Assembly (NCBI GenBank): GCA_021498095.1 | Contig: JAIZWK010000001.1 | Location: 1,890,001 to 1,922,000, forward strand | Length of the DNA: 32,000 nucleotides | Reading direction: 5' to 3' | Source of the DNA: Candidatus Harpocratesius repetitus | Lineage (GTDB): Archaea; Asgardarchaeota; Lokiarchaeia; Sigyniarchaeales; Promethearchaeaceae | Shown here: positions 20,540 to 20,918 of the stretch, piece after piece | Layout of the letters: each line of letters starts with the position of its first letter | Position numbering within the stretch: position 1 is the stretch's first letter | Made by a program: the position numbers and the translations under genes | Notes under the pieces: generated by a model | What the model saw: the letters and a program-made list of their open reading frames with translations, nothing else | The model's database searches: none | Told to the model about the DNA's origin: nothing

Positions 20540-20599
20540 GAAGATGAAAAATTATAACTTATCAAAAAATTCAAAAAGAATAATTAATTTTATTATAAT

Positions 20600-20706
20600 G
20601 GGTCCGTAGTCTAGCTTGGATAGGGCGGCAGCCTTCGGAGCTGCATGTCAAGGGTTCAAATATTAAATTTTCTTTTAGAAAATTATTGAAAATCCCTCCG
20701 GGCCCA
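20600..20706 (+). tRNA. tRNA-Arg(UCG), intron-containing (exons 20600-20660 and 20693-20706)
   Basis: Acceptor GGGTCCG/CGGGCCC, D-arm GTCT..GGAT..GGGC, anticodon stem GCAGC/GCTGC with loop CT-TCG-GA, T-arm AAGGG-TTCAAAT-CCCTC after removing 32 nt, discriminator A. CCA is not encoded. Confidence 0.93.
20661..20692 (+). other. 32-nt tRNA intron at position 59/60 with an hBHBh' motif
   Basis: Central helix TTCA(20655-58)/TGAA(20687-90), 3-nt bulges AAT(20659-61) and AAT(20691-93), intron stem AATTTTCT/AGAAAATT. Cleavage after the second bulge nucleotide restores TTCAAAT exactly. Confidence 0.9.
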
Positions 20707-20918
20707 TTTTTATTTATTAGTTTTTTTTTGATATTTTTAATAAAAAAATAATTCCTTTTTTGTAAAAACCTATTTTTCCCATGATATGATGTTCTAGCAA
20801 TTTTTTTTATCTTAATCAAATTTTATCTTTTGAGACAAAATTTTCGATAATACTTCTATTTGATACAAACTTTTTTAATTTTAATTTACGGGTTTTAAAT
20901 TGTCTTTGTCATAAATAC

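Follow-up and report, generated by a model that had tools for sequence, protein, structure and literature searches.

We find that window positions 20600–20706 (plus strand; the window being the whole 32,000-nt stretch of DNA analyzed here) very probably hold a functional tRNA-Arg(UCG) gene, apparently the only one of this Promethearchaeaceae archaeon, in which an intron between T-loop positions 59 and 60 would be excised by the splicing endonuclease EndA and the exons joined by the ligase RtcB. Base-by-base reading of the pre-tRNA gives a 107-nt body in three parts. Exon 1 (20600–20660, tRNA positions 1–59) comprises the acceptor 5′ strand, D-arm, anticodon arm, variable loop, T-stem 5′ strand and T-loop positions 54–59 (TTCAAA); it is followed by a 32-nt intron (20661–20692) and by exon 2 (20693–20706, tRNA positions 60–73), which supplies T60, the T-stem 3′ strand CCCTC, the acceptor 3′ strand CGGGCCC and the discriminator A73. 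CCA is not gene-encoded, exon 2 ending at A73. The intron is 91% A+T, matching the 32 AT-rich T-loop nucleotides that had been noticed in an earlier examination of the letters alone (hereafter the sequence-only reading).

The locus contains every element of a class I tRNA. The acceptor stem GGGTCCG/CGGGCCC pairs 20600–20606 with 20699–20705 (A73 being 20706), the D-arm (GTCT/GGGC) carries A14, G18G19, A20, and A21, and the anticodon arm (GCAGC/GCTGC, 20628–20632/20640–20644) presents the loop CTTCGGA with anticodon TCG at 20635–20637; a variable loop of 5 nt leads to the T-stem AAGGG/CCCTC (20650–20654/20694–20698). Between G53 (20654) and C61 (20694) lie 39 nt rather than the usual 7, i.e., seven T-loop bases plus the 32-nt insert. 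In-silico removal of 20661–20692 leaves a 75-nt form with the T-loop TTCAAAT restored, as the sequence-only reading had expected of standard cleavage; the predicted mature tRNA reads ...GGGTTCAAATCCCTC... and keeps U8, A14, G18G19, A20, A21, U33, C35, G53, T54-T55-C56, A58, and C61. ARAGORN calls this excised 75-nt sequence tRNA-Arg(tcg), with both exons in its cloverleaf, which upholds the assignment of an interrupted tRNA-Arg(UCG) to 20600–20706. One blemish is visible, an A–C mismatch at the first T-stem pair 49:65 (window 20650/20698), a position that is G–C in the orthologue of one relative (G007). Downstream, a T-rich trailer on the same strand (20707–20729, with TTTTT at 20707–20711 and T9 at 20721–20729) is likely, from its sequence, to be an oligo-T archaeal terminator, and similar T-runs follow several other tRNA genes of the same genome. 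No alignable TATA/BRE element was seen by eye in the 50 nt of AT-rich DNA upstream of the target and of 19 other tRNA genes.

The intact gene escapes the usual detection tools. ARAGORN called no tRNA in the whole intact window, and Rfam gave no match at gathering threshold at the intact locus, its tRNA model reaching at best 15.7 bits in a partial match to exon 1 only (20600–20658). This silence, together with an 82-codon ORF that runs antisense across the tRNA gene (window 20571–20819, minus strand), is what could be said for a chance resemblance, in which a GC-rich patch in AT-rich spacer merely looks like a tRNA gene. We hold that explanation to be exceedingly unlikely; excision yields a full cloverleaf with all invariant bases, exon 1 shares 78–92% identity with tRNA-Arg(UCG) genes from over 10 related genomes (the two together refuting it in practice), and no Pfam family was detected in the minus-strand ORF, which is likely to be called as a gene in error where an annotation overlooks the tRNA. 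With ARAGORN and the Rfam tRNA model, the forecast that standard annotation may overlook this gene was thus borne out. The consequence of such an omission is a genome that seems unable to read a common codon, and in which a spurious 82-codon ORF may take the place of the tRNA.

The means by which the insert could be removed is apparent in its pairing with the T-arm. A central helix H forms between T-loop bases TTCA (20655–20658, tRNA positions 54–57) and TGAA within the intron (20687–20690), a pairing also present in the minimum free energy (MFE) and centroid folds. Helix H is bordered by two AAT bulges, a 5′ one placed by the bulge-helix-bulge (BHB) register (20659–20661) and a 3′ one that is a 3-nt bulge in both folds (20691–20693). 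Outside these lie helix h, which is the T-stem (GGG/CCC and beyond), and helix h′ (AT/AT, 20662–63/20685–86, two A-U pairs), followed by a 2-nt bulge and an 8-bp intron hairpin (20666–20673/20677–20684, loop TTT). The arrangement is therefore that of an hBHBh′ motif, with a 4-bp H, two 3-nt bulges and at least 2 bp in each of h and h′, of which h′ is weak; direct reading and a BHB scan agree with the elements named in the sequence-only reading. The term “textbook” given to the motif there is true by pair count and not by stability. RNAfold returns the T-stem, H, the 3′ AAT bulge, and the intron hairpin in both MFE and centroid folds (z = −2.7), while in the MFE fold h′ beside the 5′ bulge is dissolved into an internal loop and H is lengthened to 5 bp. 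The full combination (H 4/4 with h′ 2/2) arose in only 0.16% of trials when the intron was shuffled 200,000 times.

The BHB cleavage rule, whereby each bulge is cut after its second base (Marck & Grosjean, 2003, as cited in PMC4090602), predicts cuts after 20660 and after 20692, hence an intron at 59/60. Cuts from 56/57 to 60/61 would all yield an identical mature tRNA and an identical intron circle, because A-runs occupy both borders with a T after each cut; since neighboring cuts give the same product, it is the cleavage rule alone that assigns the site to 59/60. A functional intron used in another register within 56/57 to 60/61, or through a relaxed motif (for instance an HBh′ form that dispenses with the weak two-pair h′), would draw on this redundancy, on the 5-bp H and lost h′ of the MFE fold, and on the use of the neighboring 58/59 site by relatives. 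We nevertheless consider it improbable, as 59/60 is the one register that provides H 4/4 with two 3-nt bulges (58/59 would force G53 to pair with A), and a BHB scan of GC-rich islands genome-wide found the 59/60 intron to be the only full-score 4+2+2 solution at the locus. The position originally proposed is accordingly retained as the sole register with a complete BHB, with the qualification that its neighbors lead to the same RNA.

Processing at 59/60 would then run as follows. The transcript would consist of the 107-nt body, in which T-loop positions 54–57 would pair with the TGAA near the intron 3′ end to create the 4-bp BHB helix, held between the T-stem (h) and the intron hairpin (h′). 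A heterotetrameric (αβ)2 EndA would cut after the second base of each AAT bulge, RtcB would join the exons into the 75-nt tRNA with T-loop TTCAAAT, and CCA would be added after splicing.

The host genome encodes the enzymes that this route calls for. Two tRNA_int_endo paralogues are present, EndA α (210 aa) and EndA β (230 aa), in addition to an RtcB ligase (E 6e-168). The two EndA genes lie at L001:1459-2091 and L002:1444-2136, both on the minus strand. The best PDB match of EndA α is the Aeropyrum pernix (A. pernix) catalytic subunit 3P1Z_B (E 9e-33), to which it aligns end-to-end with the Tyr/His/Lys triad in register; in 3AJV_B, a His-to-Ala mutant of the same A. pernix subunit, the His column likewise matches that of EndA α. 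In its N-terminal part, the α loop “IRKPK” sits ungapped on the crenarchaea-specific loop “VEKPR” of A. pernix, with the Lys conserved. EndA β has F and A in the columns of the Tyr and His of M. kandleri α, and looks from its sequence like a non-catalytic structural subunit. EndA α shares 64% identity with the Promethearchaeum syntrophicum MK-D1 protein and 60% with the Ca. Lokiarchaeum ossiferum one; as both genomes also belong to the same family as the host in our relatives panel, the host is a Lokiarchaeial Asgard archaeon.

The comparison with the (αβ)2 EndA of A. pernix (PDB 3P1Z, 3AJV) is close in that both enzymes derive from two paralogous genes, with an α subunit carrying Tyr/His/Lys and an aligned Lys-Pro loop and a β subunit devoid of catalytic residues, the host enzyme being known from its sequence alone. 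Host EndA β is closest to M. kandleri β and M. jannaschii EndA rather than to crenarchaeal β. Asgard EndA has been described as (αβ)2 with an L1 loop linked to broad substrate specificity (PMC5829648), and the host pair agrees with that description. The α/β pair with its triad and loop, the RtcB ligase and at least three further T-loop introns (below) all lend indirect support to the suggestion of the sequence-only reading that the EndA of this organism may process T-loop introns.

We also sought to establish how far the cell depends on this one gene. The genome is 4.36 Mb in one scaffold (31% GC, 10 N that look like a join of two contigs, 93.6% completeness), and no second tRNA-Arg(UCG) was found in it by ARAGORN with or without introns, by the Rfam tRNA model run genome-wide, by a BLAST search with the gene as query, by BHB-excision scans or by a scan for the UCG anticodon arm; the gene is apparently single-copy. 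CGA accounts for 27.8% of Arg codons, is the second most used of them, and is present in 1653 of 1697 long ORFs. Reading of CGA (Arg) through inosine-34 is not known from archaea. Since the codon is common, a second tRNA-Arg(UCG) was not found, and a route through inosine-34 is not known for Arg in Archaea, the gene must yield a working tRNA, which is probably the sole decoder of CGA and so of 28% of Arg codons.

The need for a working product renders unlikely the reading of the locus as an insertion-inactivated pseudogene, in which this copy lost its function to the 32-nt AT-rich insert and CGA is read by a different tRNA. That reading could appeal to the absence of a T-loop insert from both congeners (G001 and G002) and most of the family, and to the A49–C65 mismatch in the T-stem. 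Against it, the remaining cloverleaf is intact, a random insert would seldom produce a strict BHB in the right register (the 0.16% given above), and the one-scaffold genome offered no substitute by any search method for reading so frequent a codon. The sequence-only reading had named an intact tRNA-Arg(UCG) elsewhere as the sign of such an inactivated copy, and none emerged from the genome searches. We judge inactivation very unlikely, and a spliced, functional tRNA-Arg(UCG) remains our interpretation of the locus.

Orthologues of the gene vary in whether and where they are interrupted. Those recovered with exon 1 include the tRNA-Arg(tcg) genes of G002, G003, G004, G007, G008, G010, G011, and G028. 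The gene is uninterrupted in four members of the same family (G003, G004, G008, and G010) and in one of the sister family (G028), and a further member of the same family (G011) has a 37/38 intron only. Within the genus, G001 carries ~34 nt near 42/43 and G002 carries ~31 nt in the D-loop, each with an intact T-loop; the G002 locus (L009, G002:C132:2349-4074) is syntenic with ours in its upstream gene (85% identity), the tRNA-Arg(UCG) lying in the opposite orientation. Three congeners, the host included, thus interrupt orthologous tRNA-Arg(UCG) genes at three sites (D-loop, ~42/43, and 59/60). The exception to this pattern of relatives that are intronless or interrupted elsewhere is G007 of the same family, which combines a 37/38 intron with a 30-nt insert at 59/60 whose central helix has 3/4 pairs; its intron sequence is unlike that of the host (G000) outside the BHB-constrained parts. 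In the sister family, tRNA-Arg(CCU) and tRNA-Arg(GCG) contain 30–31-nt introns at 58/59, and another tRNA contains 59/60 introns.

T-loop introns cannot be aligned between genes or between genomes, and their H-helix pairs were compared by eye. Among BLAST matches to the intron half in relatives, only L016 and L028 are T-loop introns; L019, L021, L024, L029, and L031 were rejected as AT-rich non-tRNA sequence.

The differing sites among relatives indicate that the intron position of tRNA-Arg(UCG) shifts at species level, in keeping with a published account in which Asgard tRNA genes gained introns repeatedly and often on terminal branches (bioRxiv 10.64898/2026.10.13.758758). Given that the T-loop lacks an intron in both congeners and most family members, the 59/60 intron is either young or often lost. 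A more specific proposal, which we offer as a speculation with the odds against it, is that this intron is a very recent species-level gain amid ongoing intron turnover in the family, and that T-loop introns may persist by breaking up the T-arm/acceptor att segment used by mobile-element integrases. Were it true, these genomes would be a natural system for studying the arrival of archaeal tRNA introns and the reasons for their retention; as it stands, the congener comparison illustrates fast intron turnover without revealing a new mechanism.

At the locus itself, a search of the genome for further copies of any stretch of 14 nt or more from 20590–20730 gave only AT-rich matches no longer than 16 nt, with nothing to indicate an integration site or a transposed intron family. 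The neighborhood is an ordinary one, in which the flanking genes encode PAP2, a phosphorylase, a 203-aa protein, and an AAA_14/DUF4143 ATPase, among which no integrase or mobile-element signal was found.

The interrupted T-loop is not confined to this gene: elsewhere in the genome, at least three tRNA genes carry an intron in that loop. One of these is a 30-nt intron at 59/60 (G000:C1:1695179-1695208) whose H, TTCG/CGAA, differs from TTCA/TGAA by a compensatory change. The tRNA gene that contains it (G000:C1:1695090-1695235, plus strand) is interrupted at least once more, in the D-arm/anticodon region, and the “Ile(GAT)” call that ARAGORN makes for 1695090–1695235 after two excisions looks unreliable. 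The tRNA-Leu(UAA) gene has a T-loop intron best read as 58/59, and tRNA-Asp(GUC) has one of 28 nt; two introns each were seen in Asp(GUC) near 4189695–4189845 and Leu(UAA) near 785570–785697.

Interruption is also extensive in the remainder of the tRNA set. With introns allowed, ARAGORN reports no more than 36 tRNA genes in the entire genome and miscalls several of these, and many isoacceptors emerge only after BHB excision. The excision scan, which permitted up to two introns, recovers many of the missing isoacceptors and not all of them; its automatic ranking is sometimes wrong, and only hand-checked cases are cited here. Excision of a BHB in the D-arm region is needed for Trp(CCA) near 1474094–1474116, Thr(UGU) near 1531769–1531785, and Val(GAC) near 3658151–3658174. 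D-arm introns also interrupt tRNA-Arg(GCG) and tRNA-Arg(UCU) of the host. Several isoacceptors were recovered neither by ARAGORN nor by BHB-excision scans with up to two introns, and these probably carry three or more.

Introns of this kind have precedents. According to the review in PMC4090602, which draws on Marck & Grosjean (2003) and Sugahara (2008), T-loop BHB introns (53/54, 56/57, and 59/60) were first cataloged in Crenarchaeota/Thermoproteales and Nanoarchaeota, and 59/60 is listed there among the non-canonical archaeal tRNA intron sites. Asgard genomes in which 92–95% of tRNA genes contain introns have been published (PMC11291895), and a 2026 census reports that 37/38 and the T-arm are where called introns cluster, their motifs often being strong and canonical (bioRxiv 10.64898/2026.10.13.758758). 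The view that non-canonical sites are best known from Thermoproteales and a few other lineages, with which the sequence-only reading framed its claim, is therefore dated, both the 59/60 site and the richness of Asgard tRNA introns being on record. As these are already published, the present gene is a sound example of a known intron kind and not a new one.

The likenesses and differences can be stated closely. The gene shares with crenarchaeal and nanoarchaeal T-loop introns the 3-nt bulge/4-bp helix/3-nt bulge core with h and h′, the cleavage rule, the 59/60 site and the use of T-loop bases as the exon half of the motif. It differs from the crenarchaeal cases in its host, a mesophile-like Lokiarchaeial Asgard of 31% GC, and in an intron that is 91% A+T; unlike the transposed intron families of Thermoproteales, no sequence-related copies of it were found in other tRNA genes of the host genome. 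With the published Asgard tRNA introns (PMC11291895; bioRxiv 10.64898/2026.10.13.758758) it has in common the superphylum, a background of many non-canonical and multiple introns, T-arm introns with an often strong canonical BHB, a lineage-specific (terminal-branch) presence, and a widespread EndA. Those papers center on other classes, whereas our host belongs to the family of MK-D1 and Lokiarchaeum. From that family, the gene contributes a clean example to the accumulating record of Asgard tRNA genes with heavy interruption.

The pattern scan for T-loop introns returned, in addition, two repeat families that were discarded as false matches. One is a dispersed repeat of at least eight near-identical copies on both strands (for example G000:C1 positions 81167–81260, 1173179–1173356, 1486010–1486103, 2092318–2092495, 2323331–2323508, and 2845868–2846045), probably the terminal part of an IS or transposase gene; the other occurs at 2262668, 2512841, 3264144, 3284439, and 4007696 (G000:C1). 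The genome has many repeats, and large GC-rich islands in it resemble two 16S/23S rRNA gene sets.
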